Below, in pieces: positions 8,168 through 59,332 of a stretch of DNA of 64,000 nucleotides; position 1 is the first letter of the stretch; every line of letters begins with the position of its first letter. This DNA is from Nannocystis sp. SCPEA4. GTDB lineage: Bacteria; Myxococcota_A; Polyangia; Nannocystales; Nannocystaceae. Under the pieces are notes generated by a model. It was not told the origin of the DNA. It saw only the letters and a list, made by a program, of their open reading frames with translations, and did not search any database. The DNA lies in contig NZ_JAPNJX010000001.1 of NCBI RefSeq assembly GCF_026626685.1, forward strand, positions 204,752-268,751, read 5' to 3'. The translations under genes were made by a program, and so were the position numbers.

Positions 8168-10558
8168 TCAGCGCGACGGCAGCACCGGCACGGCGGTCTG
8201 GCTGCGGCCGGTGGCGCCGGCGCCGACGAGGACGCGGCCGTCGATGTCGGGAGCGTACTCGAGCGGCTCCTCGTAGCGGCCGACCAGGCGGCCGAGGCCG
8301 GCGCGGCACAGGGCGCTCTGGCCGGAAGGGTCGTGGCCCCACGCGGCGACGTGGTCGATGCAGCGGGCGTAGGCGGTGAACACCGCCTCGCGGCGCTGGG
8401 CGGCCAGGTCGCGCATCTGCTGGGCCAGGCCGACGTCGCCGGCCTGCTCGACGGCGGCGGCGACCTCGTCGAGCAGCGCCAGGTCGGACTCGTAGACCTG
8501 GGCCTTGCGGGTCTCGATCAGCGCCGCGGCCTGATCGCGCCCGCCGGCCGCGCCCGCGGTGGCGCCCTCGTAGACCGCGCTCATGCGCTCGACCTCGTCC
8601 TTGCGCACGTCGAGCCACGCGCGCGAGCGGGTCGGGTCGAGGCTCTTGGGCGGCTGACTGGTGAGCGCCGACTCGGCCTTGAGGTCGCCGAGCAGCAGCG
8701 CGACCTGGCGGCTGGCCGCGCGCGCCTCGTCGACGTCGACGGCGAGCGGCGCCTCGAGCTTGTCGGGCTCGCCGGCGCTGACCTCGGGCAGCAGCTTCTC
8801 CGCGCGGTCGAGGTGCTCGCGGGCCTTCGCCAGCGGCTTGGCCAGGCGCGGGACCACGCGGGCCGGCGTGCGGTCGCGGCCGAACTCGACGCACAGGCCC
8901 TCGGCGCCGTGGACCGGGCACGACGCCCGCAAATACGCCTCGGCCGCCCGCGCGTACGCGATCGCCAGCCGCCGCGGCCCGCCCTCCTTGCCGAACCGCT
9001 CGATGTACTTCTCCGCCGCCTCGGGCGCGACGCCGGGGCGGATCACCGCGCGGAACTGGATCGCCGCCGCCAGCGTGCGCTCCTCCGGGCGGCCGCGGAT
9101 CAGCGCCTCGAGCTGTCCTTCGGGCAATGTCCCGGCGCGCAGGCTCAAGATCAGCGAGCGGCGCCGGGCCGTGGCCGCGGCGCGGTGGCGCGGCGCGCGG
9201 GCGACGAGATCGAGGTAGCGGTCGCGCGCCTGCTCGTCGTTCAAGATCCGCTCGTGCAGCCGCGCCAGCTGCAGCACCGCGTCGGGCGCCCGCGCGTCCT
9301 CGCGGTGGACGTCGGCCATGCGCTCGAGCCAGTCGATCGCCTTCTGCGTCATGCCGGCGCGCTCGTAGCAGCGGCCGGCCCCGTCGGCCGCCTCGGCCGC
9401 GGCGTCGACGTCGGCGCCGAGGTCGGCGTACAGCGCCTCGAAGGCGGCGCCGCAGCCCGCATCGTCGCCGGCCGCCTCCGACTCCTCGGCCTGAGCCCAC
9501 AGCGCCGCCCGCCGCAGCGCCGCGACCTGGGCCGCCTGCGGCGCCCCGGCGGCCTCGACCTCGGCGGCGGCGGTGACCAGCGCGACGCGGGCGGCCGAGC
9601 GCTCGCCGGCGCCGGCCGACTCCATCCAGCGGGCCAGCAACAGGCCGACCAGCAGCACGCGGGCCTGCTCGCGCGCCGGCCCGGTGACCGCGCGCAGGCC
9701 GGCCTCGGCCTCGTCCCAGCGGCGGTACAGCATCAGCAGCTCGGCCCGCTCGACCGCCACCTGGCCGTGATCGGTCGCGCCCTGCAGGCCCGGCTCGGCC
9801 AGGAACGCGTCGTAGGCGGCCAGCCACTCGCGGTCGGCCGTCGTCAGCTCGCCCGGGGCGACGCGCGGGACCGGATCGGTGCAGCGGCCGCGTGGATCCG
9901 GGAGACATGTCTGTTCGGACATGACCCATCGGCGCGGCGGGCCGTCGTACACGCGGCGCACCGCGTCGAGCTGCGCGCGCGCCGAGCGGGCCGCCTGATC
10001 GGCCGGCAGCCCGCCGGCGAGCGCGGCGCGGTGGTGGGCGTGGGCCTCGCGCAGCGCGTCGTCGGTCAGCGTGCGCTCGCCGATCTCGAGCGTCAGCTTC
10101 TCGGCGCGGGCCCACTCGAGCCGGCCCATCGCGTGGTGCATCTGCGGCGTGTCGGCGGCCGCCGGGAAGTGCTGGCGCAGCGCCGCGTAGGCCTGCCGGG
10201 CCAGCGTGTGGCTCTGCGCCCCGCCCGACTCGGCCCCCTGCTCGGCCCAGCGCAGCGTCACCGTCGTCAGCGCCTCGCGCGTCGCCTCGGCGCAGGGCTC
10301 GCCCGCGCCCGCCCCTGTCGCGGCGTAGGCCCGCACGAGCTTGTCGATCTCCTCCCACAGGTAGCGATCGGCCAGCCGCACCAGCCCGTCCTGGACCGTG
10401 CTCGCCTGCTCCTCGCAGGCCGCCAGGCTCGGCCCGGCGGATGGCGCGACGGACATGTCCTGAGGCGCACGCACCGTCGCCGTCGTCGGCGCCCGCGGGG
10501 AGCAGCCGGCCAGCAGCAGCGCCGCGACCGCCCAGCCGAAGCCGCGCGTCCGGGTCAC
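8168..10558 (-). CDS. large TPR/helical-repeat lipoprotein
   Basis: About 796 aa from a GTG start (VTRTRGFGWAVAALLLAGC lipobox). An upstream ATG at 10645 lies inside repeat array C, so I reject it. Two degenerate repeat units sit in-frame at ~9903-9926. Confidence 0.5.
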   Translation of the reverse strand: MTRTRGFGWAVAALLLAGCSPRAPTTATVRAPQDMSVAPSAGPSLAACEEQASTVQDGLVRLADRYLWEEIDKLVRAYAATGAGAGEPCAEATREALTTVTLRWAEQGAESGGAQSHTLARQAYAALRQHFPAAADTPQMHHAMGRLEWARAEKLTLEIGERTLTDDALREAHAHHRAALAGGLPADQAARSARAQLDAVRRVYDGPPRRWVMSEQTCLPDPRGRCTDPVPRVAPGELTTADREWLAAYDAFLAEPGLQGATDHGQVAVERAELLMLYRRWDEAEAGLRAVTGPAREQARVLLVGLLLARWMESAGAGERSAARVALVTAAAEVEAAGAPQAAQVAALRRAALWAQAEESEAAGDDAGCGAAFEALYADLGADVDAAAEAADGAGRCYERAGMTQKAIDWLERMADVHREDARAPDAVLQLARLHERILNDEQARDRYLDLVARAPRHRAAATARRRSLILSLRAGTLPEGQLEALIRGRPEERTLAAAIQFRAVIRPGVAPEAAEKYIERFGKEGGPRRLAIAYARAAEAYLRASCPVHGAEGLCVEFGRDRTPARVVPRLAKPLAKAREHLDRAEKLLPEVSAGEPDKLEAPLAVDVDEARAASRQVALLLGDLKAESALTSQPPKSLDPTRSRAWLDVRKDEVERMSAVYEGATAGAAGGRDQAAALIETRKAQVYESDLALLDEVAAAVEQAGDVGLAQQMRDLAAQRREAVFTAYARCIDHVAAWGHDPSGQSALCRAGLGRLVGRYEEPLEYAPDIDGRVLVGAGATGRSQTAVPVLPSR

Positions 10559-10575
10559 CGCCGCCCCTTCGTACT

Positions 10576-10740
10576 GGATGTCTGTATGGACATGTCCCTT
10601 CGAGCACCATGCCGCGGCGCGCGATGCCAGGTCGCTGCAACGCATGGCTTCACGGACATGTCCTGAATCTCATCTTCCAGGGTTCGCGCCGCGCGATGAC
10701 CGGTCGCCGCGACGCCTGGCTTCACGGACATGCCCTGAAG
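10576..10740. repeat. GGACATGYCC-family element with ~66-72-bp higher-order tandem repeat (2.5 copies)
   Basis: ggacatgtcc at 10588 and 10654, and ggacatgccc at 10726. The unit shape is gcNtggcttcacggacatgYcctgaa plus cgcgccgcgcgatgaccggtcgccgcgac. Confidence 0.8.
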
Positions 10741-10831: not shown

Positions 10832-12634
<1,803 letters not shown>

Positions 12635-14213: not shown

Positions 14214-14282
14214 TCCGACATGTCCTTCCGAGCATGCTCGTCACGACATGCTCTCACGAACATGCTGGTTCGAACATGTATG
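14214..14282. repeat. GGACATGYCC-family tandem array (5 units)
   Basis: cgacatgtcc, gagcatgctc, cgacatgctc, gaacatgctg and gaacatgtat with CATG at 14218, 14233, 14247, 14261 and 14275. It lies between convergent gene ends. Confidence 0.85.
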
Positions 14283-14320
14283 CGGGGCAGCTCGGATGCG
14301 CTGCTCACACCGCATCGCGT

Positions 14321-20072: not shown

Positions 20073-20100
20073 GCGACATGTCCTCGCAGACAGCAGCGGC

Positions 20101-21949: not shown

Positions 21950-23026
21950 TCACGTGCGCGCGTCGACGCCCGGCAGAGCCCGGCAGGTGTCGAGGATCCA
22001 CCGCTGCAGCGCCATGTACGGCGAGGCGTAGGCGACGTGCGAGCCGCCCTTGAGGTCCTGGTCGAGGCGGACCAGCGCGGCGTAGGCCGAGCGCAGGCGC
22101 GGCTCGCTGAACCCGCGCGCCTGGGCCTCGAGCCCGCGCACCAGGAACGGCGGCAGCTTGGTCGCCTCGGCCACGCGGCCCGGGTTGACCTTGGCGGTGA
22201 AGATCAGGCGGATCTGCCGCGTGAGCATCGCCAGCACCTGCATCGACACGCCGGCGTCCTTTTCGCCCGCGGCGAACATGCGCGCCAGCACGGCCAGGGC
22301 AGCGCTGGCCTCGCCGCGGCCGACGGCGTCGGTGAGGTCGAAGATCCGCGCCTCGCGGGTGTGGGCCACGATCGCCTCGACGTCGGCGAGCCCGACCGGG
22401 CCGTCGCCGGCGTGCAGCAGCGCCTGCTCGAGGGCCCCCAGTAATTCGCTGCGCCCGGTGCCCACGGAGGCCACCAGCGCGGCCGCGGCGTCGCGGCTGA
22501 TCTTGCGGCCCTGCGCCTGCGCCTCGCCGACGACGAACCCGACCGCCTCGTCGTCGCGCTTGTAGGCCTCGAACTTGTGGGCCCACCCGTTCGCCTTGCA
22601 GGCGCTCACCAGCTTCGAGCGGCCGTCGATGCCACCGCCGCTGATCACCAGCACCGAGCTCGGGCTCGGCGCCTTGATGTAGGCCGCGAGCGCGTCCATC
22701 GCCGCCGCCGCGGTGCTCTCGGCCTCGGGGCCCTTGCCGAGGTCGTCGGGGTTGGCGAGCTCGACCAGCCGCCACTTGCTCATCATCGGGATCTGGGCGC
22801 AGGCCGACAGCACCGGTCCGGCCCCGCTGAGGTCGACGCCGTCGAAGCGCTCGTGGTTGAAGGCCGCCATCGCCTGCGCGGTCGGGTCGTCGGGCGGGAC
22901 CACGACCTTGCGCAGCGCCGTGATGACCGCCCGGATCGCCGCCGGCTCGTCGCCGTAGAGCACGTACACCGGGTCGAGCTTGCCGGCCGCGATCGCTCGC
23001 TCGAGCGCGCGGACGTCGTCGCTCAT
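21950..23026 (-). CDS. holA: DNA polymerase III subunit delta
   Basis: N-terminal MSDDVRALERAIAAGKLDPVYVLYGDEP, HolA-like length and architecture. The start is coupled to the rlmD stop. Confidence 0.75.
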   Translation of the reverse strand: MSDDVRALERAIAAGKLDPVYVLYGDEPAAIRAVITALRKVVVPPDDPTAQAMAAFNHERFDGVDLSGAGPVLSACAQIPMMSKWRLVELANPDDLGKGPEAESTAAAAMDALAAYIKAPSPSSVLVISGGGIDGRSKLVSACKANGWAHKFEAYKRDDEAVGFVVGEAQAQGRKISRDAAAALVASVGTGRSELLGALEQALLHAGDGPVGLADVEAIVAHTREARIFDLTDAVGRGEASAALAVLARMFAAGEKDAGVSMQVLAMLTRQIRLIFTAKVNPGRVAEATKLPPFLVRGLEAQARGFSEPRLRSAYAALVRLDQDLKGGSHVAYASPYMALQRWILDTCRALPGVDART

Positions 23027-24393
23027 GACCTGTCCCTCGGAGCATCCAGGGCCACGATCACCTCGACCTCCGGCGTCATCGGCATCATGTCGATCGCCAG
23101 CGCCGCGCTGGCGCGGTGACCGGCCTCCAGCAGCGGCTCGAGGTCGCGGGCCAGCGTGGCCGGGTCGCAGGCGACGAACACCGTGCGCCCGCGGGCCACA
23201 TGGGCCAGCGCCCGCGCCCCCTGCAGGCCGAGGCCGGCGCGCGGCGGGTCGAGCACCACGCGGTCGAAGCCGCGGCCCTCGGCGGCGTAGCGAACCAGCG
23301 CCCGCGTGGCGTCGAGCCGGCGCACCTCGACCTTCGCCTGTCGGCTGACACCTGTCTTTTTGGCCAGGCGCAGCAGCGCCGCCGCCGAGCCGCGATCGTC
23401 CTCGACCGCGACCACCTCGGCGGCCTCGCGGGCCAGCGCGCGCGTGAAGTTGCCGCCGCCGGCGAACAGCTCGAGCACCTGGCCGCCGCGCGCGTCGGCC
23501 AGCGCGACCACCCGCTCGACCAGGACCCGGTTCTGCGCCGCCTGGGCCTGCGCGAACTCGAAGGGACCTGTCGGAATGGCCATGTCCTCGGGGCCAGCAT
23601 CGGCCAGCGCCAGGCGGCCGCGCCCGACCACCAGCTCGCGCCGCCCGCCGCGGGCGACCACGCCGACGACCACGTTGTCGAGCGCCTCGCCCAGCGCGGC
23701 CCGCAGGCCCGCCTCGCCGCCGTCGCCCTCGCGCGGCGCGAGGCCGGGGATCCCCACCACCACCGCGGCGCCGTCGGACAGCAGGTGCAGCTCGCCGCGC
23801 CGCAACAGCCGCAGCACCTGCGCGAACGCCCCGCCCGCGCCCGCCAGCGCGTGCAGGCGGGCCAGCGCGTGGTTGAGCGGGGCGTCGAACACGGGGCAGT
23901 GCGCGAGGTCGAGGACCTCGTGCAACTGCCGGCGGTGCAGGCCGAGCCGCAACGCATCGCCGACGCGCTCGACGTGCAGGCGGGCGCGCCGTCGGTAGCC
24001 GAGCGCCCGCGGGCTCGCCAGCGCCTGCGGGACCGCGATCCCGAGCCGGCGCAGCGCGCCCTCGGCGATCTGGCGCTTGAGCTCGGCCTGCGCGGCCGCC
24101 CGCGCGTGCTGCAGGCCGCAGCCGCCGCACACGCCCTCGACCGGGCACGGGGGCGCGACGCGATCGGGGCTGGCCGTCAGCACCTGCAAGGTGCGCCCGC
24201 GGATCATCCGCCGGCGCTCCTCCGACCTGACCGCAAGGACCTGTTCTCCGGGCAATGCCCCTTCGACCAGCCATGTGCGCGTGTCGGCGCCCTCGCCCAC
24301 CGCCCGGCCGACACCCTCGCCGCCGTGGGCGATCCCGCGGATCTCGACGGGCTCGCCGGCCGCGGCCTCCGTGGCCTCGGTCGTCTTCATCAC
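23023..24393 (-). CDS. rlmD: 23S rRNA (uracil-5-)-methyltransferase RlmD/RumA (TRAM + Fe-S + SAM methyltransferase)
   Basis: CGGCGLQH Fe-S cysteines, SAM-binding VLELFAGGGNFT and a catalytic C-terminal region. Confidence 0.8.
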   Translation of the reverse strand: MMKTTEATEAAAGEPVEIRGIAHGGEGVGRAVGEGADTRTWLVEGALPGEQVLAVRSEERRRMIRGRTLQVLTASPDRVAPPCPVEGVCGGCGLQHARAAAQAELKRQIAEGALRRLGIAVPQALASPRALGYRRRARLHVERVGDALRLGLHRRQLHEVLDLAHCPVFDAPLNHALARLHALAGAGGAFAQVLRLLRRGELHLLSDGAAVVVGIPGLAPREGDGGEAGLRAALGEALDNVVVGVVARGGRRELVVGRGRLALADAGPEDMAIPTGPFEFAQAQAAQNRVLVERVVALADARGGQVLELFAGGGNFTRALAREAAEVVAVEDDRGSAAALLRLAKKTGVSRQAKVEVRRLDATRALVRYAAEGRGFDRVVLDPPRAGLGLQGARALAHVARGRTVFVACDPATLARDLEPLLEAGHRASAALAIDMMPMTPEVEVIVALDAPRDRS

Positions 24394-31250: not shown

Positions 31251-31327
<77 letters not shown>

Positions 31328-34500: not shown

Positions 34501-35522
34501 GGGGGCGGCGGCGCCGGCAGGCTGCGCGGGCGGAACGAGCCGGCCATGGGGTCGGTCTTGGGCCGCGGGCCGCTCGCCGTGGGCGCCACGACCGGTCGCA
34601 GCGGCGACGCGCTCGGCTCCTCCCAGTCGTCCTGTTCGCTCAGCTGGTTGAGGACATCCTGGACCACCACGCGCATCACGTTGGCGCTCGGCCAGCGGGC
34701 CACCGGCTCGAACGCCAGCGCGCGGTCGACCAGCTCGATGAGCGGCCTGGGCAAGTCGGGTCGCAGCGTCGCCAGCGAACGCGCCGGCGTGCGGGCCACC
34801 GCCAGCAGGCGCTCGATCACCGGGCCCACCGCCGGGAAGACCGTCTCGCCCGACAGCGCGCGGAAGATCGTCGCCGCGATCGACCACAGGTCGCTGCGCG
34901 CGTCGAGGTTCTCGTTGTCGGCGCGGGCCTGCTCGGGCGCGATGTACGAGACCGTCCCGAACACGATGCCGTCGCTCTGGTCGAGCGCCTCGGCCGACAG
35001 CTCGCGCACGCGGGCGAGGCCGAAGTCCAGCAGCTTCACGCTGCCGTCGCGGCACAGGAAGATGTTGGCCGGCTTGATGTCGCGGTGGAGGATGCCCTTC
35101 GAGTGGGCGGCCGCGAGCACCTCGAGCAGCGCGTCGGTCATCTCGAGCACGGCCATCGGCGGCAGCTGGCCGAGTCGCTCCAGGCGGGCCTCGAGCGACT
35201 CGCCGTCGAGCAGCTCCATCACCAGGTACACGTCGCCCTCTTCGGTGATGTCGTCGTCGAGGACGTGGACCGCGTTGCGATGGCCGACGCTGTTGGCGGC
35301 GTAGCCTTCGCGCAGGAAGCGACGGCGCGCCTGCTCGTTGCGCAGGAAGAGCGTGTGCAGCACCTTGAGCGCGGCGCGGTTGCCGTTGCGATGCGTCGCC
35401 GCGTACACCGACGCCATGCCGCCGATGGCGATCAGGCCGTCGAGGTGCCACTTGTTGCGCAGCCACCGGCCCACGCGTCCCTGGGCCTCCGACAAGAACC
35501 TCGTGCTGCTGCCCCCGACCAA
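31557..35522 (-). CDS. serine/threonine protein kinase with ~950-aa Pro/Ala/Gly/Ser/Thr-rich low-complexity tail
   Basis: N-terminal kinase domain (HRDIKPANIF, DFGLAR, APEQ). The tail contains ~80-bp imperfect tandem DNA repeats (32341-32660) and in-frame GGACATGTCC-family units, giving peptides TDRS.GTAG and HVGSDMSRGAG. Confidence 0.85.
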   Translation of the reverse strand: MVGGSSTRFLSEAQGRVGRWLRNKWHLDGLIAIGGMASVYAATHRNGNRAALKVLHTLFLRNEQARRRFLREGYAANSVGHRNAVHVLDDDITEEGDVYLVMELLDGESLEARLERLGQLPPMAVLEMTDALLEVLAAAHSKGILHRDIKPANIFLCRDGSVKLLDFGLARVRELSAEALDQSDGIVFGTVSYIAPEQARADNENLDARSDLWSIAATIFRALSGETVFPAVGPVIERLLAVARTPARSLATLRPDLPRPLIELVDRALAFEPVARWPSANVMRVVVQDVLNQLSEQDDWEEPSASPLRPVVAPTASGPRPKTDPMAGSFRPRSLPAPPPPAPKSPPRASGPFANLADGTGGEEFEINVDETLRNKALAAGGGPSASVSDTSKGRSRTLLTREGKAELRKILEERRASLGIPERPADRPESKPVKAAEPVKSEEEIAEELEWERLRAAAVAASAPAPAPEPVSEPDEPEIDQDAAAAETIAAAAAEDEEPLAESGSYPSEGEAGEGEAGEGDEGGYAEEVEEFDEAEVDELEDGEPDPNEDTVQMTMPAELPVPESVRAAQAAGASGHVGSDMSRGAGPLGPVPGVMRPGPPPPGASGPLPVAARPPGQTVVGPAPLPPGVSGPAPRAGLGTATPGLARGASGPVPAAPRQPLGTGLSGPVPTASRPPTQGPPGAGVSGPVPGARPATPAQGQPTVGLPGPGARPAAPAQGQPAVGAPGPARPATPAQGQPVVAVSPGARPATPARGQPAVTPGLSGGTGTSEPVPAGTSAPASGSPAAPRGGSVPGQGTPATGRTFVPPGGSLPTRPAAEPTGAGKPGEAPRWSSPTAGRPPLGLGTTVSAAAGRSGSGPVPAASDAPQAASAAGRSEPSKAAASGSIGQASARPLSGPAKAASGPAKAASAVAGPAGAPLSAGGPAKAAGVGAPSVSGTAKAASVGAAGAAKPAGMTDRSSGTAGQAGAGAGGSSPSVAATGPADRPLGTGRQAGASGGGSSQSTATPSPADRSSRTGTPVGGEAAKPAVAVATDRSAGTAPVKAPGAGLTDRSPGTAGPGESAGTKPAGTPAAASGATGAKSTPAPGVNRPAMSGPANAAKPETPAGTSGGAASASPATGASTGTSPSKSPAAGPGTTPAKTSTPSGPGATKPAPSTSATPGGATAKAAAVEPARGGLPGPGTSGMSSGSGSKTAPASAAPGGPKSAAVPAAAAPTSATTATTPAAASVPAPEPQAAPAEAPPASAAEPTPAPAPKPTFEPLGPVGTSARPRGKSALFDIPGPGGGGLVPRPSGAKRPASEPNDAAKPTSSDPADKKA
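32341..32660. repeat. imperfect ~80-bp coding tandem repeats carrying ggacctgtcc units (inside kinase tail)
   Basis: ggacctgtccgt recurs at 32355, 32406, 32475, 32548 and 32637 with similar flanks. Confidence 0.7.
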
Positions 35523-38860: not shown

Positions 38861-38865
38861 ACGGA

Positions 38866-38943
38866 CGGACATGCGCCGAGGGGCATGTCCCTTCGAGCAT
38901 GCGTCCCGGGACATGCCCTTGCGGACATGCCCGAAGCGACACT
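38866..38943. repeat. GGACATGYCC-family tandem array (5 units, exact 14-bp period)
   Basis: CATG cores at 38870, 38884, 38898, 38912 and 38926. It sits between the convergent HK and pirin genes. Confidence 0.85.
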
Positions 38944-38959
38944 TCTCGCCCCGCGGCCC

Positions 38960-40312: not shown

Positions 40313-43204
40313 TCAGCCGCGCTCGCTCGGGTCGAGGCCCTGGATCCCCGCCACCATCACCGCGTGCAGGCGGGGCTCGTCGATGTGGGCCGCGATCGCG
40401 TCGGCGGTGAGGTCGCGCAGGCGGACGATGTCGACCAGCGTCTTGCCCTCGGGCGTGATCGGCGGGAGCACCTGGACATCGATCTGGACATGTCGCGGGA
40501 GCCAGGTGCCGTCGTGCAGCGCGTTGCGAGTGCCCCGCAGCGCGATCGGCACCACCGGCACGCCGGTCTCGGCGGCCAGGCGGAACGCGCCGAGCTTGAA
40601 CGGCCGCAGCCCGGCCTCGCGGCTGAACGTGCCCTCCGGGAACACCACCACCGGCGCGCCCGCGCGCAGCACCTCCGCCACCGCCTCGAGCCCGGCCAGC
40701 GCCCGCTCCGCCTGCAGCCGCTCGATCAGCACGTGACCGGCCCGGCGGATCAGCGGCCCGAACGCCCGGTTGTCGCGGCACTCGCCCTTGACCACGAAGC
40801 GGATCGTGTCGGGCAGCGCCGCCAGCAGCACGAACGGGTCGAGGTAGCTGCAGTGGTTGGGCGCGAGGATACATGGCCCTTGGGGCATGTTCTCGAGGCC
40901 AGTCACGTTCGGGCGCAGGCCGATCGTCGCCATCGTCGCGCGGGCGACCTGGCGCGAGAACTTCCGCAGCGGCGCGCCCGACGGGATCAGCCGCCCGGCC
41001 GCAGTCGACGCGGCGAGCATGCCGCCGAAGGTGCCGAGGGCGAAGCCGCCGTACGCGACCTCGCCGGCGCGCCCGGCCAGCGCGCGGGCGCGGCGCGGCA
41101 GCCCGCGCAGGTACAGCCCGGCGGCCTGGCGAGCGAACGAGCCGTGGCCGCGCCCGAGCTCGCCGGCGAGGTAGAGCTTGCGCGTGTCGCCGCGGCGGAT
41201 CTTGCCGCTCGACGTCTTCGGCACCGCGCCGGGCGCCGTCAGCACCACGCGATCGGGCGGGATCCCGACCGACGCCGCGATCGCCTCGCCGATCTTCTGC
41301 TGCAGCGCCGAACGGGCGGCCGGCCGCTCCTCCTTCGTCTCGGCGACCACCACGATCGACTCGGTCCCGGCCGCCTCGTCGCGGACGGCGAACGCCGCCA
41401 CGCAGCCTTGCCGCACTCCCGCGACCGCGCCCGCCGCGGCCTCGAGCTCGTGCGGGTAGTAGTTGCGGCCGCCCTTGATGATCAGGTCCTTGACGCGACC
41501 CGAGATGAACAGCTCGCCGTTGACCATGTACCCGAGGTCGCCCGAGTCGACCCAGCCGCCCTCGAGCTTGACCTTCGCGGTCGCCTCCGGGTTGCCGTAG
41601 TAGCCCTTGAACGTCGACGGCCCGCGGAACAGGATCCGGCCCTGCTGCCGATCGGGCAGCGCCGCGCCGGCCTCGTCGGCGATCCGCACCTCGTGCTTCG
41701 GCACCGCCGCGCCGCAGCCGACGAAGTGCAGCACCTCGCCCTCGGGCGCGTCGGCGGCGGCCTGTCGCGCCTCGCCCGTCGCCTCGAAGGTCGTGCGCTC
41801 GACGCGATCGACCAGCGGTCCGCGGCCCGGCGGCGGGAACGTCACCGCCACCATGTTCTCGGCCAGGCCGTAGGCGCAGAACAGCGCCTCGCGGTGGAAG
41901 CCCGCCGGCGCCAGGTGCTCGGCGAAGCGGTCGAGCGTGGCCGGCAGGATCGGCTCGGAGCCGTTGAGCAGCGCCCGGATCTGGCCCAGCTGCAGCGGCG
42001 CGATCGCCTCGGGCGCGACCCGCTTGACGCACAGGTCGAACGCGAAGTTCGGCGCGCACGCGATCGTCCCGTGGTAGCTCGAGAACGCCTGCAGCCAGCG
42101 CTCCGGCCGGGCCAGGAACGTCACCGGCGACAGGATCACCGTGGGTGTCCCGAAGTACAGGTTCATCAGCCACCCGCCGACGAGCCCCATGTCGTGGTAG
42201 AGCGGCAGCCAGCTGACCATCACGTCGCCGGGCCGCAGCCCGCAGCCCTCGGCTGCCGCGCGGATGTTGGCGAGCACGTTGGCGTGCGTCAGCTCGACGC
42301 CCTTCGGGTCGCCGGTGCTGCCCGACGTGTACTGCAGCAGCGCCGTGTCCTCGCCGCGCAGGTCGGCCGCCACCGCGGTGTCGAGGCTGGCGTCGGCCAG
42401 CGCCTCGTCGACGTCGAGCACCTGCCCGAGCGCCGGCACCTGGTCGCGGATCAGCTCGGCGACCCGGGCCGCGCGGGCGAACGTGATCAGCACCTCGGCC
42501 TCGGCGTTGGCCAGGATCTTCGCCTCGCGCTGGATGTACTCGGCGATCCGGTCGAGGCGGAACGGCGGGTACAGCGGCACCGGCACCCCGCCGGCCAGCA
42601 GCGCGCCCATGAACGCCGCGAAGTAGCCGCGCGACGTCGGCAGCATGATCGCCACCTTGCCGCCCGGCTTGAGCCCGCGCCGCCGCAGCCCCGCCGCCAC
42701 CCGCCCGGCGTCGCGCCGCAGCGCCGCGTAGGTGATCGGCTCCTCGCGCCCGTCCTCGCGCAGCAGCATGATGTGGACCCGCCCCGGCGCGCGCGCGACG
42801 TGCCAGTCGAGCGCCTCGATCAGCGTCTGCGCCGCCGCCGGGGCCGGCGCCGGCGCGTCCGTCGGGAGAGACAGGTCCTCGCGGACATGCTCCTTCGGAC
42901 CTGTGCTCGTGGACATGTCCGAAGCGCCCTCCCCGCGGGCCTTGCGGGCCAGGGCGAGCAGCTGGCGCGGGGTGTCGGCCTCGCTCAGCGCCTCCTCGGG
43001 GAACACCACACCGAGGCGGGCCTCGAGGCGGCCGAGCAGCTCGACGCGCTCGAGGCTGCCGAGGCCGAGCTCGCGCTCGAGCGAGGCGTCGAGGCGGAGG
43101 TTGCCGAGGCCGCGCCCGTCGCCGACGGCGGAGATGAGCTCACCGACGACGGCGAGGACCGTCGCCTCCTCGATGGGGCCGGGGGCCGGGGGCGTGTCGG
43201 GCAT
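40313..43204 (-). CDS. tri-domain ACP - fatty acyl-AMP ligase (FAAL/acyl-ACP synthetase-like) - 1-acylglycerol-3-phosphate acyltransferase (PlsC-like) fusion
   Basis: N-terminal carrier domain (LGLGSLERVELL), AMP-binding motifs (YTSGSTGDPKGV, GYYGNPEAT), and a C-terminal HxxxxD acyltransferase motif (NHCSYLD, FPEGT). An in-frame repeat array sits in the ACP-FAAL linker (42866-42922). Confidence 0.8.
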   Translation of the reverse strand: MPDTPPAPGPIEEATVLAVVGELISAVGDGRGLGNLRLDASLERELGLGSLERVELLGRLEARLGVVFPEEALSEADTPRQLLALARKARGEGASDMSTSTGPKEHVREDLSLPTDAPAPAPAAAQTLIEALDWHVARAPGRVHIMLLREDGREEPITYAALRRDAGRVAAGLRRRGLKPGGKVAIMLPTSRGYFAAFMGALLAGGVPVPLYPPFRLDRIAEYIQREAKILANAEAEVLITFARAARVAELIRDQVPALGQVLDVDEALADASLDTAVAADLRGEDTALLQYTSGSTGDPKGVELTHANVLANIRAAAEGCGLRPGDVMVSWLPLYHDMGLVGGWLMNLYFGTPTVILSPVTFLARPERWLQAFSSYHGTIACAPNFAFDLCVKRVAPEAIAPLQLGQIRALLNGSEPILPATLDRFAEHLAPAGFHREALFCAYGLAENMVAVTFPPPGRGPLVDRVERTTFEATGEARQAAADAPEGEVLHFVGCGAAVPKHEVRIADEAGAALPDRQQGRILFRGPSTFKGYYGNPEATAKVKLEGGWVDSGDLGYMVNGELFISGRVKDLIIKGGRNYYPHELEAAAGAVAGVRQGCVAAFAVRDEAAGTESIVVVAETKEERPAARSALQQKIGEAIAASVGIPPDRVVLTAPGAVPKTSSGKIRRGDTRKLYLAGELGRGHGSFARQAAGLYLRGLPRRARALAGRAGEVAYGGFALGTFGGMLAASTAAGRLIPSGAPLRKFSRQVARATMATIGLRPNVTGLENMPQGPCILAPNHCSYLDPFVLLAALPDTIRFVVKGECRDNRAFGPLIRRAGHVLIERLQAERALAGLEAVAEVLRAGAPVVVFPEGTFSREAGLRPFKLGAFRLAAETGVPVVPIALRGTRNALHDGTWLPRHVQIDVQVLPPITPEGKTLVDIVRLRDLTADAIAAHIDEPRLHAVMVAGIQGLDPSERG

Positions 43205-50541: not shown

Positions 50542-50543
50542 CG

Positions 50544-50596
50544 GGACATGTCCTCACGGACCTGGCTCACTCGCCATGTCCTTTATGACCTGTCGT
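50544..50596. repeat. GGACATGYCC-family tandem array (4 units) overlapping the speE 3' end
   Basis: ggacatgtcc at 50544, then ggacctggct, cgccatgtcc and tgacctgtcg. It encodes the last ~10 codons of speE. Confidence 0.75.
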
Positions 50597-51487
50597 GTAC
50601 GACAGCAGCTCGCCCTCGCCGGTGATCACCGCCCCCGGCTGGGCCAGGCGGCGGCGCAGGATCGGCGGCAGCTCGAGCGCCGCGCGGTGGGCCGTCGGCG
50701 TGTACCACTGCAGCTCGCCGAGCGCGGCGATCCGGCGGGCCAGGTCGGGCGGGTCGGCGTCGAGCGGCCGGCGCGACATCAGGGCGAAGCCCCACAGGCA
50801 GTGGAACGACGGCACGAAGCCGTGGGCGAAGCGGACGTGGGGGAACACCGCCTCGAGCGTGCTGCGGACGGTGCGGGCCAGCTTGAGGTCGAGCGGGTCG
50901 AGCTCGCCGGCCTGCAGCACGCAGATCCCGTCGTCGGCGAGGGCGCGCAGCACGAGCGAGAAGAACTGGGTCGAGAACAGTGCCGCCGACGGCCCCTCGT
51001 CGGTCGGGTCGGTGACGTCGAGGACGATCGCGTCGAAGCTGCCGGGCGCGGCCTGGCGCAGCGTGTCGAAGATGTCCTCGGTGCGCAGCTCGACGCGGGG
51101 GTCGTCGAGGCTGCCGGCGTGCCACTGCTCGAGGTGGCGCCGGCTGAGCTCGACCACCTCCGCATCGAGGTCGACCGACACGATCTTCTCGACCGACGCG
51201 TGGCGCAGGATCTCCCGCAGCGACGCCCCCTCGCCTGTCCCTCCGACCAGCACCCGCCGCGGCGACCCGTGCAGCACCAGCGCCGGGTGGACCAGCGCCT
51301 CGTGGTAGAGCGCCTCGTCGGCCTCGGCCGACTGCACCAGCCCGTCGAGGAACAGCATGCGCCCGTAGGCGCTGGTGTCGGCGACGACCGCGTCCTGGTA
51401 GCGCGTCTTCACGTGCGCGACCAGGCGCTCGACGCTGTACAGGATCGACACGCCCTCGATCTCGGGCTCTTGCAGCACCAGGTGCAT
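50567..51487 (-). CDS. speE: spermidine synthase (polyamine aminopropyltransferase)
   Basis: VLVGGTGEGASLREILRH, DLDAEVVELSR and DAIVLDVTDP motifs; 306 aa. Confidence 0.8.
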   Translation of the reverse strand: MHLVLQEPEIEGVSILYSVERLVAHVKTRYQDAVVADTSAYGRMLFLDGLVQSAEADEALYHEALVHPALVLHGSPRRVLVGGTGEGASLREILRHASVEKIVSVDLDAEVVELSRRHLEQWHAGSLDDPRVELRTEDIFDTLRQAAPGSFDAIVLDVTDPTDEGPSAALFSTQFFSLVLRALADDGICVLQAGELDPLDLKLARTVRSTLEAVFPHVRFAHGFVPSFHCLWGFALMSRRPLDADPPDLARRIAALGELQWYTPTAHRAALELPPILRRRLAQPGAVITGEGELLSYTTGHKGHGE

Positions 51488-51502: not shown

Positions 51503-51985
51503 TCAGCCGCGCGACCGGCGGCGGCTGACGATCATACCGAGCCCGGTGGCCACCAGCGCCAGCATCCCGAGGCCCGCGAGCAGCGCGGCGGCCTGCCCCG
51601 GCAGACCGACGATCTCGCCGGTGTGCAGCTTGAAAAGCAGCTGCGTCAGCCCGCCCGCGGTGCGGCGGCGCTCGATCAGCGAGCCGTCGCCGGCCAGGTA
51701 GAGCACCGTCTCGTCGTCGTCGTCGAGCCAGAACACCCACGGCGCGTCGGGTTCGGTGGCCAGGCCGATGTCGGTGATCACCTCGTCGCCGGCCTCGCGC
51801 TGCGCGCGCGCCAGCAGCGCCTCCAGCGCGAGCGGCTGCTCGACCACCGGCGCGGTCGGCGGCGGCACCTTCGCGCAGCCGCGGAACACCAGCATCGCCC
51901 CCGTCAACGCGATCACGGCGAACACCGCCGCCAGCCCGGCCCCGACCGTCTGGTGCAGCTTGAACAGCCTTCGGCGCATGCTCAT
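51503..51985 (-). CDS. PepSY-associated TM helix domain protein
   Basis: Duplicated LFKLHQ.. and LFKLHTGE motifs flank TM helices. Confidence 0.6.
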   Translation of the reverse strand: MSMRRRLFKLHQTVGAGLAAVFAVIALTGAMLVFRGCAKVPPPTAPVVEQPLALEALLARAQREAGDEVITDIGLATEPDAPWVFWLDDDDETVLYLAGDGSLIERRRTAGGLTQLLFKLHTGEIVGLPGQAAALLAGLGMLALVATGLGMIVSRRRSRG

Positions 51986-52040
51986 ACGGACATGCTCCTT
52001 CGTTCATGCCCCTTGCGACATGTCCTCACAGCATGGCCCC
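51975..52040. repeat. GGACATGYCC-family tandem array (5 units, 14-bp period)
   Basis: CATG at 51977, 51991, 52005, 52019 and 52032. It spans the PepSY start and TBDR stop, and the TBDR C-terminal residues are encoded by the array. Confidence 0.8.
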
Positions 52041-54479
52041 CCAGGTGCGCCAGAACCACCGCTCGATCCGGCGCACGCCGGCGGTCCAGACCCGGCGGTT
52101 GACCTTGCCGGCCTTCCAGCGCATGCGCGCCTGCTCGCCGGCCTTGCCGCGGATCCACTCGTGGGCGAAGCCCAGGTTGAAGTAGAACGTGCGCGGGCGC
52201 ATCGGCAGGATGCCGCCGTTGATGTCGTCGGAGCGGGTGAACCACTGCTCGTTGAGCAAGTTCTTGACGCCGACGGTCGCCTCGAGCCGCCAGCCCTGCG
52301 GCAGGGCGGTGCGGTAGCCCAGCCACGCGCCCATCAGGGTGTAGGCCGGCATCGTCCCGACCTCGCCGGTCGCGCGCGGCGCGTCCCAGTTGGCGTAGTC
52401 GGTGTACTGCTTGTCGACCCACTCGATCTTGGTGCCGACGCGCAGGCCGAACGGCGCCTCGTAGCTGGCCGAGCCCCACACCTCGTGCGCCGGGTACCAC
52501 GGCATGCGGTTGCCGGTGTAGAGGTCGCGCAGCACGCGGCTGCCGTTGTAGGCGTAGCCGGCGTTGAACTCCAGCCCCTCGACCTTCTCCCACACCTCGC
52601 CGGGCAGCCACTCGACGTCGACCTCGGCGCCGTAGGTGTGGGCCGCCGGGATGACGTCGATCGCGTTCTCGCCCTCGTCGCGCAGGTTGTTGAAGTAGCG
52701 GTACCAGCCGTCGACGGTCGCGTACACCCCGCCGAGCTCCATCAGCTTGACGCCCGCCTCGACCGTGTCGGCCAGCTCGGGCTTGATGAAGCGCAGCGCC
52801 CGGCCCATCGCCTCGCCGGGGTTGATCGGCTGGATCGCCCCCGACAGGTAGCTCGGCGCGCCGAACGAGCGCCCGTAGCCGAGGTAGAGCCCGACGTAAT
52901 CGCCGCCGTACCACAGCGACGCCGCCGGCAGCGGCCCGCCGTAGAACGGCCGCGGGTAGCTCACGCCCTCGAGCACGTTGTAAAAGCTCTGCTTGGTCAG
53001 CTCGAGCCGCACGCCGGCGGTCAGCACCAGCTTGGTGTCGAGCAGGTAGATCTTGTCCTCGAGGTACAGCGAGTAGCCGCCGATCCGGCCGTCGAAGCAG
53101 CGCAGCGCGTTGGGCGAGCCCTCCGGCAGCACCGCGCCGCGCGGGCACACGCGCGCGTCGCCGTCGGCCTGGAGCGGGTCGCCGGGGCGCCCGGGGAACT
53201 CGACGCGGAAGCCGCGGATCCGCGCCGCCTCGAACACCCCGCGCGTGCCGATCGAGATGTCGTGGAAGCCGCCGCGGTGGCGCACGCGGAACGCGTAGCG
53301 CGGCTCGATGCCGACCACGTCGAACGCCCGCGGCTGCACCAACAAGAAGGTCGGCGCCGCGCCGAGGTTGCGGTCCTCGTTGGTCGCCTGGACCACGCGG
53401 CGCAGCGTGTGGCTGTAGAACGCGATCACCTGCAGCTCGTGCTCGGCCTTCGGCGTCCACCGCAGCTTGAGGCTGGTGCCCTCGCGGTGGCCGTTGAAGG
53501 TGTCGAACGGGCGGTTGCTGGAGAATCGATCGTCGGCGTAGGTGGCCGAGTCGAGACCGCCCGGCAGGTTGGTCTTCTCCCAGAACAGGTGCGTGCTCGA
53601 CAGCAGCTCGATGCGCTTGGTCACCGGCACCTGCAGCTTGACGATCCCGCCGTGGCTCTGAAACTCGCTGTGCTCGCGGTACGTCTTGCCGAACCGCGGC
53701 GCGTACTCGACGTACACGCCGACGCCCTTGTGCGTGCCGCCGTACGAGGCCGCCGCGCCGGCGTCGCCGAACTGGTCCGACTGGGCGAACACCGACACCG
53801 TCGGGTTCTTCGGGATCGGGTGCGACACCATGTTGAACACGCCGCCCGACGTCCACGGCCCGAAGCGCACCGACGAGCCGCCGCGCACCGTGTCGACGCG
53901 GGCGATCTGGAACAGCGACAGCGGGAACAGCACCATCGACGGCGCGCCGTACGGGGCCGGCGCCACCGGCACCTCGTCGAGCAGGATCGTCGCCTGCTCC
54001 GACAGCCGCGGGTCGGCGCCGCGGACCGCCAGGTTGAGCTTCGTCGCCGACGTCCCGAGCCCCGACGCGCCCTCGACCGCGCGCACCCCCGGGACCTTGT
54101 CGAGCAGCTCCGCCACCCCGCTGGCGCCCTCGGCCTTGGCGTCGTCGACGTCGACCACCGCGCGCCCGCCCGCGTGGCGGTGGGCGTCGATGCGGGTCGA
54201 GCGGCCGAGCAGGTCGGTCGTCACCTCGATGTCGCGCGACTCGCCCGGCAGCACCTTGGTCCCGGGGGCCAGCGGCGGCTCCTCGGCCTCGGGCGCGGCC
54301 GGGGCGGTGACCGTCGGACTGCCTGTCTCTTCGGGCATGCTCTTCGGAGCAGGCTCCCGAGAGAATGTCCAATCGGACCTGTCCTCCGGAGCAGGCACGT
54401 CCGGAGCCGCGTCCGGCCCGTCGTACGCGCGCGGGTCGGCGGCCAGGAGCAGGGCCAGGCTGTACGCGAACGGCGGCAC
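52026..54479 (-). CDS. TonB-dependent receptor
   Basis: Plug motifs (IEVTT.., VRAVEG), multiple beta-barrel strand motifs; 817 aa. A degenerate repeat array (54317-54398) lies in-frame after the putative signal peptide. Confidence 0.85.
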   Translation of the reverse strand: MPPFAYSLALLLAADPRAYDGPDAAPDVPAPEDRSDWTFSREPAPKSMPEETGSPTVTAPAAPEAEEPPLAPGTKVLPGESRDIEVTTDLLGRSTRIDAHRHAGGRAVVDVDDAKAEGASGVAELLDKVPGVRAVEGASGLGTSATKLNLAVRGADPRLSEQATILLDEVPVAPAPYGAPSMVLFPLSLFQIARVDTVRGGSSVRFGPWTSGGVFNMVSHPIPKNPTVSVFAQSDQFGDAGAAASYGGTHKGVGVYVEYAPRFGKTYREHSEFQSHGGIVKLQVPVTKRIELLSSTHLFWEKTNLPGGLDSATYADDRFSSNRPFDTFNGHREGTSLKLRWTPKAEHELQVIAFYSHTLRRVVQATNEDRNLGAAPTFLLVQPRAFDVVGIEPRYAFRVRHRGGFHDISIGTRGVFEAARIRGFRVEFPGRPGDPLQADGDARVCPRGAVLPEGSPNALRCFDGRIGGYSLYLEDKIYLLDTKLVLTAGVRLELTKQSFYNVLEGVSYPRPFYGGPLPAASLWYGGDYVGLYLGYGRSFGAPSYLSGAIQPINPGEAMGRALRFIKPELADTVEAGVKLMELGGVYATVDGWYRYFNNLRDEGENAIDVIPAAHTYGAEVDVEWLPGEVWEKVEGLEFNAGYAYNGSRVLRDLYTGNRMPWYPAHEVWGSASYEAPFGLRVGTKIEWVDKQYTDYANWDAPRATGEVGTMPAYTLMGAWLGYRTALPQGWRLEATVGVKNLLNEQWFTRSDDINGGILPMRPRTFYFNLGFAHEWIRGKAGEQARMRWKAGKVNRRVWTAGVRRIERWFWRTWGAML
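54317..54398. repeat. degenerate GGACATGYCC-family array (6 units) inside TBDR N-terminal coding region
   Basis: gggcatgctc, gagcaggctc, gagaatgtcc, ggacctgtcc and gagcaggcac with a 14-bp period. Confidence 0.65.
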
Positions 54480-57653: not shown

Positions 57654-57968
57654 ATGGCGACCCACATCACTGAAGAGTGCATCAACTGCGGCGCGTGCGA
57701 GCCGGAGTGCCCCAACGAGGCGATCTCGGAGGGCGACGACCGGTATGTCATCGACCCCAACCTCTGCACCGAGTGCGTCGGGTTCCACGACTATGAGGCG
57801 TGCCAGGCCGTGTGCCCGGTCGAGTGCTGCGTCCCCGATCCGGAGCGCCGCGAGGTCGAGGAGACCCTCCTCGAGCGCGCCCGCAAGCTGCACCCCGAGA
57901 AGAGCTTCCCCGCCGTCGCCGACCTGCCCAGCGATCTGAGCCGGTTCCGCAGCGCGAAGAAGAAGTGA
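57654..57968 (+). CDS. 4Fe-4S ferredoxin (YfhL-like)
   Basis: CINCGACEPECP and CTECVGFHDYEACQAVCP cluster motifs, with an AGGAG-like RBS 12 nt upstream. Confidence 0.8.
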   Translation: MATHITEECINCGACEPECPNEAISEGDDRYVIDPNLCTECVGFHDYEACQAVCPVECCVPDPERREVEETLLERARKLHPEKSFPAVADLPSDLSRFRSAKKK

Positions 57969-58189
57969 CCCGGCGCGACCCGCCGCATCGACCTGACCTG
58001 TGAAGGGCGGCGCCACGGCGCCGCTCTTCGCGTTGGTCGCGCCTCCACGTCGTGCTCACCGGCTGTCGAGCAGGGGCTCCGCCCTCTCCGCGCCACGGAG
58101 GATCGACGCTCGCTCCAGTCGTGTTCGCCGCGCCGGTCCGCTCACCGACGGCGATCTCTGCTGCGGGCGCGGCGCGCCGGACCTCCTCG

Positions 58190-59332
58190 ATGGCCAGGAC
58201 GCGGGCATGGCGTGCGTCGGCCCGATCGTCGGGTCCGAACGGGGGTCCTGACTTTCGCAGCCGCCCCGGGGACACTCTCGCCAGCGTGTCGTCCTCGCCC
58301 GCTCCTGCGCCTCTCGCTGCCGCGCCTGCACCCGCGCGCGCGTGGCTGCGCGTCGGCCTGTCGCTGGGGATCACCGCGCTCGCGCTGTGGCTGGTCCAGC
58401 GCCAGCTCGATCCCCTGCCCGACGAGCTCGAGATCGCCGCCTGGGGCCTGCCCGCCTACCTCGCCACCCTGCTGGTCTACGCCTTCCTGCGCTCGGCGCG
58501 GTGGTGGTTCCTCGTCAGACCTTTGGGACAGGTTCGCTTCGGCGACGTCATGCTCGTCGGGCTCGCCGGCGCGCTGTGGATCGTCGCGCTCCCGTGGCGG
58601 CTCGGCGAGCTGGTGCGCCCGGCCCTGCTCGCCCGGCGCAGCGGCATCCCGGGCAGTCAGCTGCTCGGCACCGTCGCCATCGAGCGCGTCGTCGACGGCC
58701 TGTGCGTGTGCGCGGCCTTCTTCGTCGCCGCCGCCGGCGCGCCGGACGTCCCGGCGCTGACCGGCCTCTACGCCGCCTGCACCGCCGCCTTCGCCCTGTT
58801 CGCCGGCGCCCTCGTCGTGCTCGTCGTGCTCGCCCGCTGGCCGGCCGCGCTCGAGCTGCTGCTGCGGCGCGGCCTCGGCCGGATCGCCGCCCGGCCCGCC
58901 GCCATCCTCGCCGACGTCGCCCGCGGCCTCGCCGAGGGCCTGCGCGCCCTGCCCTCGCTGCGTCCGCTGCTGCTGTTCCTGCTCGGCACCGTCGCCTACT
59001 GGGGCACCAACGTGTTCGGCATGGCCCTGCTCGCGCGCGCCTGCGGCCTCGACCTCGGCCTGCTCGACGCGCTCGCCGTCCTCGCCGTCCTCAACCTCAC
59101 CCTGCTCGTGCCCGGCCCGCCGGCCCACGTCGGCACCTTCCAGCTCGGCGTCGCCGCCGGGCTCGGCCTGTTCCTCCCGCCCGACGTCGTCCGCGCCGGC
59201 GGCTCGACCTACGCCTTCTTCCTCTACACCTGCCAGCTCGCCATGATCGCCGCGCTCGGCATCGCCGCCAGCCTGCGCCTGCGCCTCGGCTGGCGCGCCG
59301 CCCTCGACCTCCGCCCGCCCGCCCGGCCCTGA
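58190..59332 (+). CDS. flippase-like / lysylphosphatidylglycerol-synthase-TM-domain family membrane protein
   Basis: About 8 TM helices and no C-terminal catalytic domain. It is a paralog of the next gene. Confidence 0.55.
   Translation: MARTRAWRASARSSGPNGGPDFRSRPGDTLASVSSSPAPAPLAAAPAPARAWLRVGLSLGITALALWLVQRQLDPLPDELEIAAWGLPAYLATLLVYAFLRSARWWFLVRPLGQVRFGDVMLVGLAGALWIVALPWRLGELVRPALLARRSGIPGSQLLGTVAIERVVDGLCVCAAFFVAAAGAPDVPALTGLYAACTAAFALFAGALVVLVVLARWPAALELLLRRGLGRIAARPAAILADVARGLAEGLRALPSLRPLLLFLLGTVAYWGTNVFGMALLARACGLDLGLLDALAVLAVLNLTLLVPGPPAHVGTFQLGVAAGLGLFLPPDVVRAGGSTYAFFLYTCQLAMIAALGIAASLRLRLGWRAALDLRPPARP

Follow-up and report, generated by a model that had tools for sequence, protein, structure and literature searches.

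The 64,000-nt stretch of Nannocystis sp. SCPEA4 considered here (contig NZ_JAPNJX010000001.1, positions 204,752 to 268,751; hereafter the window) carries a family of short, near-palindromic repeats, phased at 14 bp, that occupies the spacers between genes and reappears within the genes themselves. The copies inside open reading frames (ORFs) belong to the intergenic family, exceed the number expected from synonymous codon choice, bring no net insertion at the sites that can be compared, are conserved at orthologous positions, and keep their core while the spacer beside it changes. They were probably overprinted by substitution on existing codons and then held by a constraint at the level of the nucleic acid, which would seem to be functional in nature. 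An initial annotation of the window had pointed to units embedded in frame within coding sequences and had attributed them to in-frame insertion; as discussed in the following sections, the units are real and their proposed mode of entry is not upheld.

A 14-bp repeat family of spacers and genes

The repeat unit is a near-palindromic decamer with the consensus GGACATGYCC, followed by about four variable bases, and successive units keep a strict 14-bp register. The distance from one CATG to the next is 14 nt in 35 cases and 28 nt in nine, while 13 or 15 nt occurs only twice; variants of the centre (CAGG, CCTG and others) share the register of the arrays in which they occur. The window contains about 25 intergenic arrays, each of two to six units, and CATG is 4.6 times as dense in intergenic as in coding DNA. 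Arrays occupy 6 of the 8 convergent spacers, 10 of the 30 tandem (same-strand) spacers and 3 of the 8 divergent ones, a distribution that associates the family with 3' ends and intercistronic gaps. Two arrays between convergent genes, one of six units at 38865..38948 and one of five units at 14214..14283, serve as references. Units within one array are mostly divergent, above all in their spacers. Perfect triplicates were seen only in a more distant relative (L084, introduced below), where three identical copies of GGACATGCCCCACA lie in an intergenic array of about nine units (L084 3173-3298), and such copies are proof that spacers undergo unit duplication. From one species to another, the unit count of an orthologous array changes by about one.

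Coding copies were scored with a weight matrix built from intergenic units only, with a softened centre, and a cluster was defined as two units in register. The coding sequences of the window contain 16-17 such clusters, where codon permutation predicts 0.55 and synonymous shuffling, which keeps all protein sequences, 2.4-2.7. At pair scores of at least 20 bits the count is eight against 0.11 (synonymous shuffling), and strong single units in coding sequence (score of at least 11) number 30 against 11.2 expected. A matrix-free count of C[AC][TG]G pairs inside coding sequences peaks at 14 nt, a distance that is not a codon multiple, with 77 pairs against about 45, or 62 against about 37 when the tail of the giant kinase described below is left aside. 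Because synonymous shuffling removes the signal, the constraint appears to act on the nucleic acid and not on the peptide. These counts (17 clusters against 2.7, and eight against 0.11 at high score) bear out the claim that ORFs contain repeat-family copies, and that these are the intergenic family and not generic low-complexity sequence; the peptides originally quoted for them are correct, as are most of the coordinates. The statement that they usually lie in linkers holds only in part: about 11 of the 17 clusters fall in disordered linkers, tails or termini, eight of those 11 are in a single kinase tail, and four strong clusters overlie conserved, structured protein segments.

The window has a G+C content of about 72%. 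Over 21.8 kb it is collinear, at 97.3% identity, with contig JAQNDN010000024 of Nannocystis radixulma (comparison sequence L090). N. pusilla has a protein 92% identical to the ACP-FAAL-acyltransferase protein of the window, and orthologous DNA was compared from further genomes: N. pusilla itself (L081), a species with 82% FAAL identity (L082), a Nannocystaceae lineage with 67% FAAL identity (L084), an orthologue at 61% identity in which the repeat family is marginal (L085), and two repeat-free relatives (L086 and L087), namely Paraliomyxa and an 11-Mb myxobacterial genome, both of which also lack intergenic arrays. In-ORF clusters are again in excess in N. pusilla (9 against 0.21 expected), L082 (4 against 0.20) and L084 (7 against 0.47), and none occurs in L086 or L087. 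A profile search of genome contigs with the FAAL alignment gave, among the matches listed, distant relatives of 39-48% identity, which served only as negative controls and have 0.98 clusters per 10 kb.

Pfam confirmed the gene identities given in the initial annotation. They include a Ser/Thr kinase with a long tail (31557..35522, minus strand), a PP-binding/AMP-binding/acyltransferase protein (ACP-FAAL; 40313..43204), a second kinase (10832..12634), an RlmD/RumA-type methyltransferase (23023..24393), a TonB-dependent receptor (TBDR; 52026..54479), a spermidine synthase (speE; 50567..51487) and an LPG-synthase-like membrane protein. Two observations that could have dissolved the in-ORF units into something more ordinary were looked for. 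The repeat-free relatives L086 and L087 have neither the units nor the linker peptides, and the genes of the window are intact, aligning with their homologues over their full length, and are not frameshifted pseudogenes.

Coding sites and the question of insertion

The linker of the ACP-FAAL protein, noted in the initial annotation, contains four units in strict 14-nt register (42867..42922, minus strand) that encode the peptide SDMSTSTGPKEHVREDLS and are read in three codon phases in succession. The array stands in the same register in the window, N. pusilla, L082 (three units) and L084, and neither the array nor its peptides are present in L085, L086 or L087. Across the four lineages that have it, unit 1 reads DMS, DMP, GMS and DRS, unit 2 TGP, AGP, AGS and TGP, and unit 3 HVR, HVP, HVL and QVR, and the rare codons ACA/GCA, GGT and CAT are kept. 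An insertion of 56 nt would add about 19 residues, yet linkers that contain the array have 44, 44, 45 and 46 residues, and those that lack it (L085, L086 and L087) have 42, 43 and 40. The array is lineage-specific, being confined to four repeat-bearing Nannocystaceae lineages, and the length of the linker is unchanged. A second site in the same protein, found by the present scan, is a pair of units at 40867..40894 (minus strand) lying over the conserved acyltransferase motif ENMPQGPC. The ENMPxGPC pair is found only in the three Nannocystis-clade sequences (window, L081 and L082), involves changes of ATC to ATG and CCS to CCA, and shows no indel relative to homologues.

The methyltransferase gene rlmD has two sites. 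Site 2, a unit pair at 23562..23589 (minus strand), encodes residues 269-277 (EDMAIPTGP) and leads into the methyltransferase domain; the copy annotated at 23564-87 is real, but at residues 269-277 of 456 it is not at the N-terminus where it had been placed. The sequences GAGGACATGkCC and GGACmGGTCC are kept in three metagenomic orthologues of 47-52% protein identity (GC3, the G+C content of third codon positions, 0.93-0.94), together with the rare codons GGT, ATT, GTT and GTA and an A/T-rich spacer codon; the units are absent from more distant orthologues. Compared with E. coli RumA (PDB 1UWV), this site differs by only two residues. Site 1, previously marked at 24224-77, consists of three weaker units (24221..24262, minus strand) over the conserved TRAM-domain motif EGALPGEQV, where five rare synonymous codons occur within about 15 codons and the motif is unchanged. 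There is no indel relative to RumA, and the pattern is not seen in two more distant orthologues that cover the region (L092 and L093). To judge from these comparisons, rlmD site 1 and the ENMPxGPC pair show signs of more recent overprinting.

The highest-scoring in-ORF pair (26.5 bits) lies in a TPR-like lipoprotein at 9901..9928 (minus strand), where the initial annotation had 9903-26. It encodes WVMSEQTC over a family-invariant Cys-x7-Cys loop and uses the rare codons GAA, ACA and TGT; the loop has no indel in Nannocystis-clade sequences and differs by one or two residues in distant homologues. The scan also found a single perfect unit (GGACATGTCC, encoding QDMS; 15.3 bits) in the N-terminal tether of this protein at 10449..10462 (minus strand), and N. 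pusilla has KDMS at the same place. At all five internal sites that can be compared with homologues (the ACP-FAAL linker, the FAAL acyltransferase domain, both rlmD sites and the lipoprotein Cys loop) there is no net insertion, the difference being at most one to six residues, and this result goes against in-frame insertion as the source of the units. Element boundaries could not be defined for the units, which grade into the flanking coding sequence.

The gene next to the lipoprotein, kinase 10832..12634, had been credited with a linker copy at 11531-52. The evidence there is weak: one good unit (YMSG) with a weak neighbour follows the kinase domain at 11541..11568 (minus strand), at the end of an apparently hydrophobic, possibly membrane-spanning segment, and its score of 12.8 bits is near chance, so that the site is borderline. 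The 273-nt spacer between this kinase and the lipoprotein (10559-10831) contains a 72-nt tandem duplication of 84% identity (copies 10613-10675 and 10685-10747), with a unit at the end of both copies. N. pusilla and N. bainbridge have no such spacer: their two genes overlap, and the signal-peptide region of the lipoprotein is different. Some 275 bp of repeat-bearing DNA were thus either acquired by the lineage of the window and N. radixulma or lost by the other two species.

The long tail of the giant kinase holds more clusters than any other segment, and all of the copies annotated there were recovered (at 31951-78, 32353-32660, 33195-222, 33507-34 and 33741-810). On the minus strand, a five-unit array at 33741..33810 (GASGHVGSDMSRGAGPLGPVPG) marks the start of the Pro/Ala/Gly-rich tail and has orthologous arrays at the same place in L081 (six units) and L082 (two units). 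Unit pairs follow at 33507..33534 (LGTGLSGPVPT; 22.9 bits), 33195..33222 (GGTGTSEPVPA; 22.6 bits) and 31951..31978 (PGPGTSGMSSG; 17.8 bits). Between the last two, at 32341..32660, an in-frame tandem protein repeat contains five GGACAGGTCC (D-R-S) units, each with a weak second unit. The D-R-S units are spaced at 81, 81, 69 and 51 nt and share one codon phase, which indicates that they multiplied as passengers of the larger protein repeat; Tandem Repeats Finder reports an 81-nt repeat of 2.5 copies that contains them. The ORF is open for 1233-1321 codons in three genomes. Two indels, of 15 and 45 nt, distinguish two N. pusilla strains in the alignable part of the tail, both multiples of 3, and both fall in EGQYG and SRPTPVMGQPAA peptide repeats without unit-encoded tripeptides, as judged from the peptides.

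Several further features of the tail deserve mention. Over 31557-33800 (minus strand), about 740 codons, GC3 periodicity is 0.72-0.86, compared with 0.9-1.0 in the kinase domain, and the tail has its own 54/57-nt, 81-nt and 21-nt tandem repeats; inspection by eye of the 54/57-nt repeat gave no 14-nt structure, and it is regarded as an ordinary protein repeat. Conservation of the tail between species is poor, and the tails of more distant orthologues bring the whole protein to 1039-1358 aa. An 889-aa version of the kinase in one N. pusilla assembly (P0241) was considered as a truncated tail or pseudogene and set aside, since the same assembly also splits FAAL, Pirin and another kinase and the truncation is probably due to assembly frameshifts. 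In N. pusilla GCA_026626665.1 (L091, an 11.9-Mb contig), the genes for FAAL, Pirin, a kinase and the giant kinase are, without exception, broken up or cut short by comparison with a second N. pusilla assembly, a pattern that suggests assembly frameshift errors rather than real pseudogenes. A different gene, at 15143-15449 of L084, has a 93-nt in-frame repeat with a unit pair in every copy.

At the TBDR, a six-unit array (54317..54400, minus strand; PEDRSDWTFSREPAPKSMPEETGS) lies in the N-terminal region, between a putative signal peptide and the plug domain, as had been noted; a start of the ORF at 54479 finds support in the G/C-ending codons that form a run immediately upstream and in the 823-827 aa of the proteins called for orthologues. 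The C-terminus of the TBDR, by contrast, is not encoded by an array as first described: the intercistronic array between the TBDR and the PepSY gene (51972..52027) abuts the TBDR stop, touching only that codon and the last three codons (AML), and its last unit provides the start of PepSY (MSMRR). The corresponding claim for speE, that its last ten or so codons come from a flanking array, proved correct for about nine of them. The four-unit array at 50542..50597 (minus strand) supplies the last ~9 codons of the gene (TTGHKGHGE*) with two of its units, has the other two in the spacer, and gives the ATG of the next gene with its last unit; the speE tail differs between species (HKGHGE, SRGQGD and AKDQD). 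Several genes apparently start at the ATG within the CATG of a unit (51986-52025, 50542-50566 and 20073-20100), with N-termini such as MS, and units stand directly between stop and start codons in an apparent single operon of the TBDR, PepSY, speE and another gene. In the LPG-synthase-like gene, the site formerly placed at 58507-58526 in a flippase-like protein is not a unit; a single unit (GGACAGGTTC, GQVR) adjoins it at 58524..58537 (plus strand).

Among neighbouring features without a connection to the 14-bp family, in-ORF tandem repeats occur at 5343-5593 (period 45 nt, 5.6 copies), 21308-21488 (period 57 nt, about 2.8 copies, apparently Cys-rich) and 49060-49177 (period 27 nt, 4.5 copies). 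Some 230 nt beyond its stop codon, the giant kinase ORF is followed by a tRNA-Met gene (anticodon CAT; 31251-31327, plus strand). ARAGORN also predicts a tRNA-Ser at 47050-47130 (minus strand), inside an aminotransferase gene; it lacks Rfam support and is probably a false positive.

Constraint on the units and its possible sources

Codons ending in A or T make up 4.4% of codons in this genome, and the units are spelled with such rare codons, among them ACA, GCA, GGT, CAT, TGT, GAA, ATT and CCA. Outside the kinase tail, a substantial share of rare-codon hot spots (at least four rare codons in ten) coincide with units. N. pusilla keeps the A or T at 17 of the 31 third positions that have one inside units, and at 108 of 365 such positions elsewhere. 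Comparison with N. radixulma gives a finer picture. In intergenic units the central AT is unchanged at all 84 positions, the central six positions differ at 3.6% and the ten-base core at 5.3%, while outer positions (the spacer and the core edges) differ at 10-22% each; other intergenic DNA differs at 5.6% and third codon positions at 3.7%. In cores embedded in coding sequence the count of changes is 0 of 51. In the arrays within 832-22620 compared with L090, the outer positions change two to four times faster than other intergenic DNA or third codon positions; the spacers may show the true neutral rate, or the arrays may be mutation hot spots.

Since 14 leaves a remainder of 2 when divided by 3, successive units cycle through three reading phases, GAC-ATG-TCC (D-M-S), ACA-KGT-CC (T-G/C-P) and GGA-CAK-GTC (G-H/Q-V), a cycle that the FAAL linker displays exactly. 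Strong single units prefer the phase made of common codons, GAC-ATG-TCC (20 of 30), a preference of isolated units that matches the behaviour of uptake sequences in coding DNA (PMC2817400).

A history that would fit these observations begins in the 3'-end and intercistronic spacers, the putative home of a Nannocystaceae-wide family of 14-bp-phased near-palindromes with the core GGACATGYCC. Units in coding sequence would arise from single-base changes, by way of rare synonymous codons that end in A or T and of residue replacements compatible with the motif, and would then be kept by the constraint on the nucleic acid, persisting at orthologous sites down to about 50% protein identity. The encoded peptides, D-[M/R/L]-S, T-[G/C]-P and G-[H/Q/P]-V, would be by-products. 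Tolerance of the protein would filter where units persist, and their concentration in disordered segments is attributed to this filter: linkers, tails and termini would be the usual places, and conserved segments would occasionally accept synonymous or conservative spellings. Copy number within a protein would grow only with the duplication of a larger in-frame protein repeat, and arrays would contribute new protein sequence only as short stretches at a C- or N-terminus, the speE tail and the PepSY start being examples. As for function, the likeliest candidates would be an array of phased sites bound by a dimeric protein, on DNA or RNA, and a hairpin signal of the REP kind.

Some of the evidence pulls the other way. 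Intergenic ten-base cores, taken whole, diverge about as fast as other intergenic DNA, so that purifying selection on them may be read only from the contrast with the fast spacers and from the invariant centre. Neither the kinase tail nor the TBDR N-terminus has an array-free homologue for comparison, and the linker alignments are compatible with an insertion balanced by a deletion of similar size. All of the statistics rest on gene calls made here by a simple GC3-based method, and the sample consists of the 64-kb window and five 22-kb loci. A binding protein for the motif was not identified, and none is to be guessed confidently from the motif. Adjacent units covary weakly (6.41 against 6.16 complementary positions, p = 0.009), and a test for complementarity between flanking spacers found none. 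For these last two reasons a hairpin function, in RNA or in DNA, is not well supported and an explanation in terms of RNA structure was not adopted, despite fold z-scores of -3 to -6 relative to shuffled controls for most intergenic arrays (-3.6 for the reference array at 38865..38948): the weak covariation of neighbours and its absence from spacers argue against a purely structural RNA role, and mildly favour recognition of the consensus itself, for example by a dimeric protein on phased sites.

The model put forward in the initial annotation held that units enter and expand within ORFs as in-frame insertions, for example by slipped-strand events of 42-45 bp, creating new linkers and C-termini. 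Intergenic arrays can indeed expand by unit duplication, as the triplicate in L084 attests, orthologous arrays vary by a unit or so, the speE tail is read from an array, and N. pusilla strains do differ by indels in the kinase tail. Set against this are the lack of length gain at the five testable internal sites, the 56-nt FAAL array (four units, not a multiple of 42), the passenger pattern of the D-R-S units, and the position of the 15- and 45-nt indels in repeats of another kind. The comparison with N. radixulma is equally unhelpful to slippage in triplets: of 17 indels over the 21.8 kb, which includes about 11 arrays, none is 14, 28 or 42 nt long or any multiple of the unit; one, of 3 nt, affects the edge of an array, another is a gap of 16 nt a little outside an array, and no array differs by a whole unit. 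Insertion is accordingly an improbable account, and for internal sites it is largely refuted. Less probable still, to the point of being hard to entertain, is that the units are chance or protein-level resemblances, or untranslated segments within over-extended ORFs. Some two or three of the 17 clusters are expected by chance, the sites in kinase 10832 and at 58507 are marginal, a conserved DGTWLPRH motif gives motif-like matches even in L085, and the weak GC3 periodicity of the kinase tail might suggest an ORF called too long. Yet shuffling that keeps every peptide loses the signal, the 14-nt peak does not follow the codon, repeat-free relatives have neither units nor peptides, genes align with homologues from end to end, and the kinase ORF stays open in three genomes with tail indels that respect the frame; for the strong sites, chance is refuted.

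A non-adaptive mutational drive, in which a biased process makes and homogenizes units and protein selection removes only the harmful copies, is a more serious competitor, if a rather unlikely one. Possible candidates are hairpin-templated (quasipalindrome) correction of one unit by its neighbour, short-patch gene conversion with other arrays as donors, and a repair bias linked to CATG methylation. Such a drive would account for overprinting without change of length, for the strict 14-nt offset (a 10-nt stem and a 4-nt loop) with its hypervariable spacers, and for the preference of isolated units for the common-codon phase, and it would parallel the supposed accumulation of uptake sequences (PMC2817400). 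Recent gene conversion, on the other hand, should leave shared tracts, and within the 64 kb embedded arrays have no tract of more than 16 nt in common with other arrays; the complementarity of adjacent units hardly exceeds that of random pairs; and persistence at orthologous sites at about 50% identity, together with placement at 3' ends, looks more like a maintained function. Overprinting followed by nucleic-acid-level constraint remains the favoured reading. A stronger version of it, in which a genome-wide Nannocystaceae signal of 10-bp palindromes arrayed at 14 bp is under selection strong enough to overwrite coding sequences and is bound by an oligomerizing protein with affinity for DNA or RNA, or acts structurally, is put forward only tentatively.

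Relation to known repeats

The family is apparently undescribed. Searches of the literature on the motif, Nannocystis repeats and myxobacterial REPs turned up nothing relevant, the matches to GGACATGTCC being papers on p53 response elements, which have no bearing here. An Rfam scan of the window matched no family to the arrays, its sole match at the gathering threshold being a tRNA.

In their behaviour within coding DNA, the Nannocystis units appear closest to the uptake sequences (USS/DUS) of Haemophilus and Neisseria, whose coding copies accumulate by substitution and not by insertion (Findlay and Redfield 2009, PMC2817400). Uptake sequences raise the frequency of the tripeptides that they encode and favour frames of preferred codons and poorly conserved protein positions (PMC2817400). 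The parallels are a short motif over-represented in intergenic and coding DNA, an apparent origin by substitution, a preferred-codon phase and, for about 11 of 17 clusters, a location in disordered segments or termini. The Nannocystis motif differs in being a palindrome in 14-bp-phased tandem arrays that is forced through three frames and spelled with rare codons, and its density in coding DNA is about ten times lower than in intergenic DNA; nothing ties it to competence or DNA uptake.

Palindromic repeats translated within normal proteins at tolerated places are also known from Rickettsia palindromic elements (RPEs) and from MITEs with in-frame fusions. An RPE is a discrete element, some 150 bp in size, whose insertion makes the host protein longer (reviewed in PMC10969869). 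The Nannocystis units, in contrast, are 14 bp long and overlie existing residues, and the lengthening of genes that marks RPEs was looked for at the five comparable internal sites and not found.

Repeats of the REP/BIME type offer a likeness in another respect, as imperfect palindromes in 3'-end and intercistronic spacers that can form hairpins and keep their position between related strains; the location and folding of the Nannocystis arrays agree with this description. The REPs of enterobacteria and pseudomonads are 20-40 nt long, usually occur as inverted pairs (REPINs), are linked to RAYT transposases and are essentially extragenic, whereas the Nannocystis units are 14 nt long, phased as direct repeats and present in coding sequences as well, with no inverted pairs of 20-40 nt. 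Ten window proteins screened against Pfam include no transposase-like protein. The cyanobacterial HIP1 (GCGATCGC) is likewise a short palindrome that is highly over-represented in genes and spacers and kept at the DNA level, and a link to a methyltransferase has been proposed for it; its copies are dispersed singly and not in phased tandem arrays. Mycobacterial MIRUs resemble the Nannocystis family as tandem repeats in the operon spacers of a high-GC genome that overlap flanking stop and start codons, as happens where units begin PepSY and finish speE. MIRUs are built of units of 40-100 bp, however, and vary in copy number between strains, unlike 14-bp units that show no change in copy number at 97% identity. 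The strict 14-bp phasing of a decamer palindrome, combined with overprinting of coding sequence, fits none of these families fully.

Should the genome-wide signal prove to be real, three 14-bp units would span four helical turns, and the signal would have forced rare codons and specific tripeptides into linkers and even conserved domains, at gene positions unchanged since before the rlmD orthologues of the Nannocystis clade fell to about 50% identity. Bacteria would then offer a clear example of a second, non-protein code superimposed on coding sequences and conserved across deep divergence, and the FAAL linker, rlmD residues 269-277 and the lipoprotein Cys loop would offer concrete sites for finding the reader of the motif. 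The family also matters wherever myxobacterial genes are codon-optimized or expressed in a foreign host, since the units would be lost on recoding. For those who annotate these genomes, clusters of rare codons and odd linker peptides can be the footprints of a repeat family and not of selection at the protein level.

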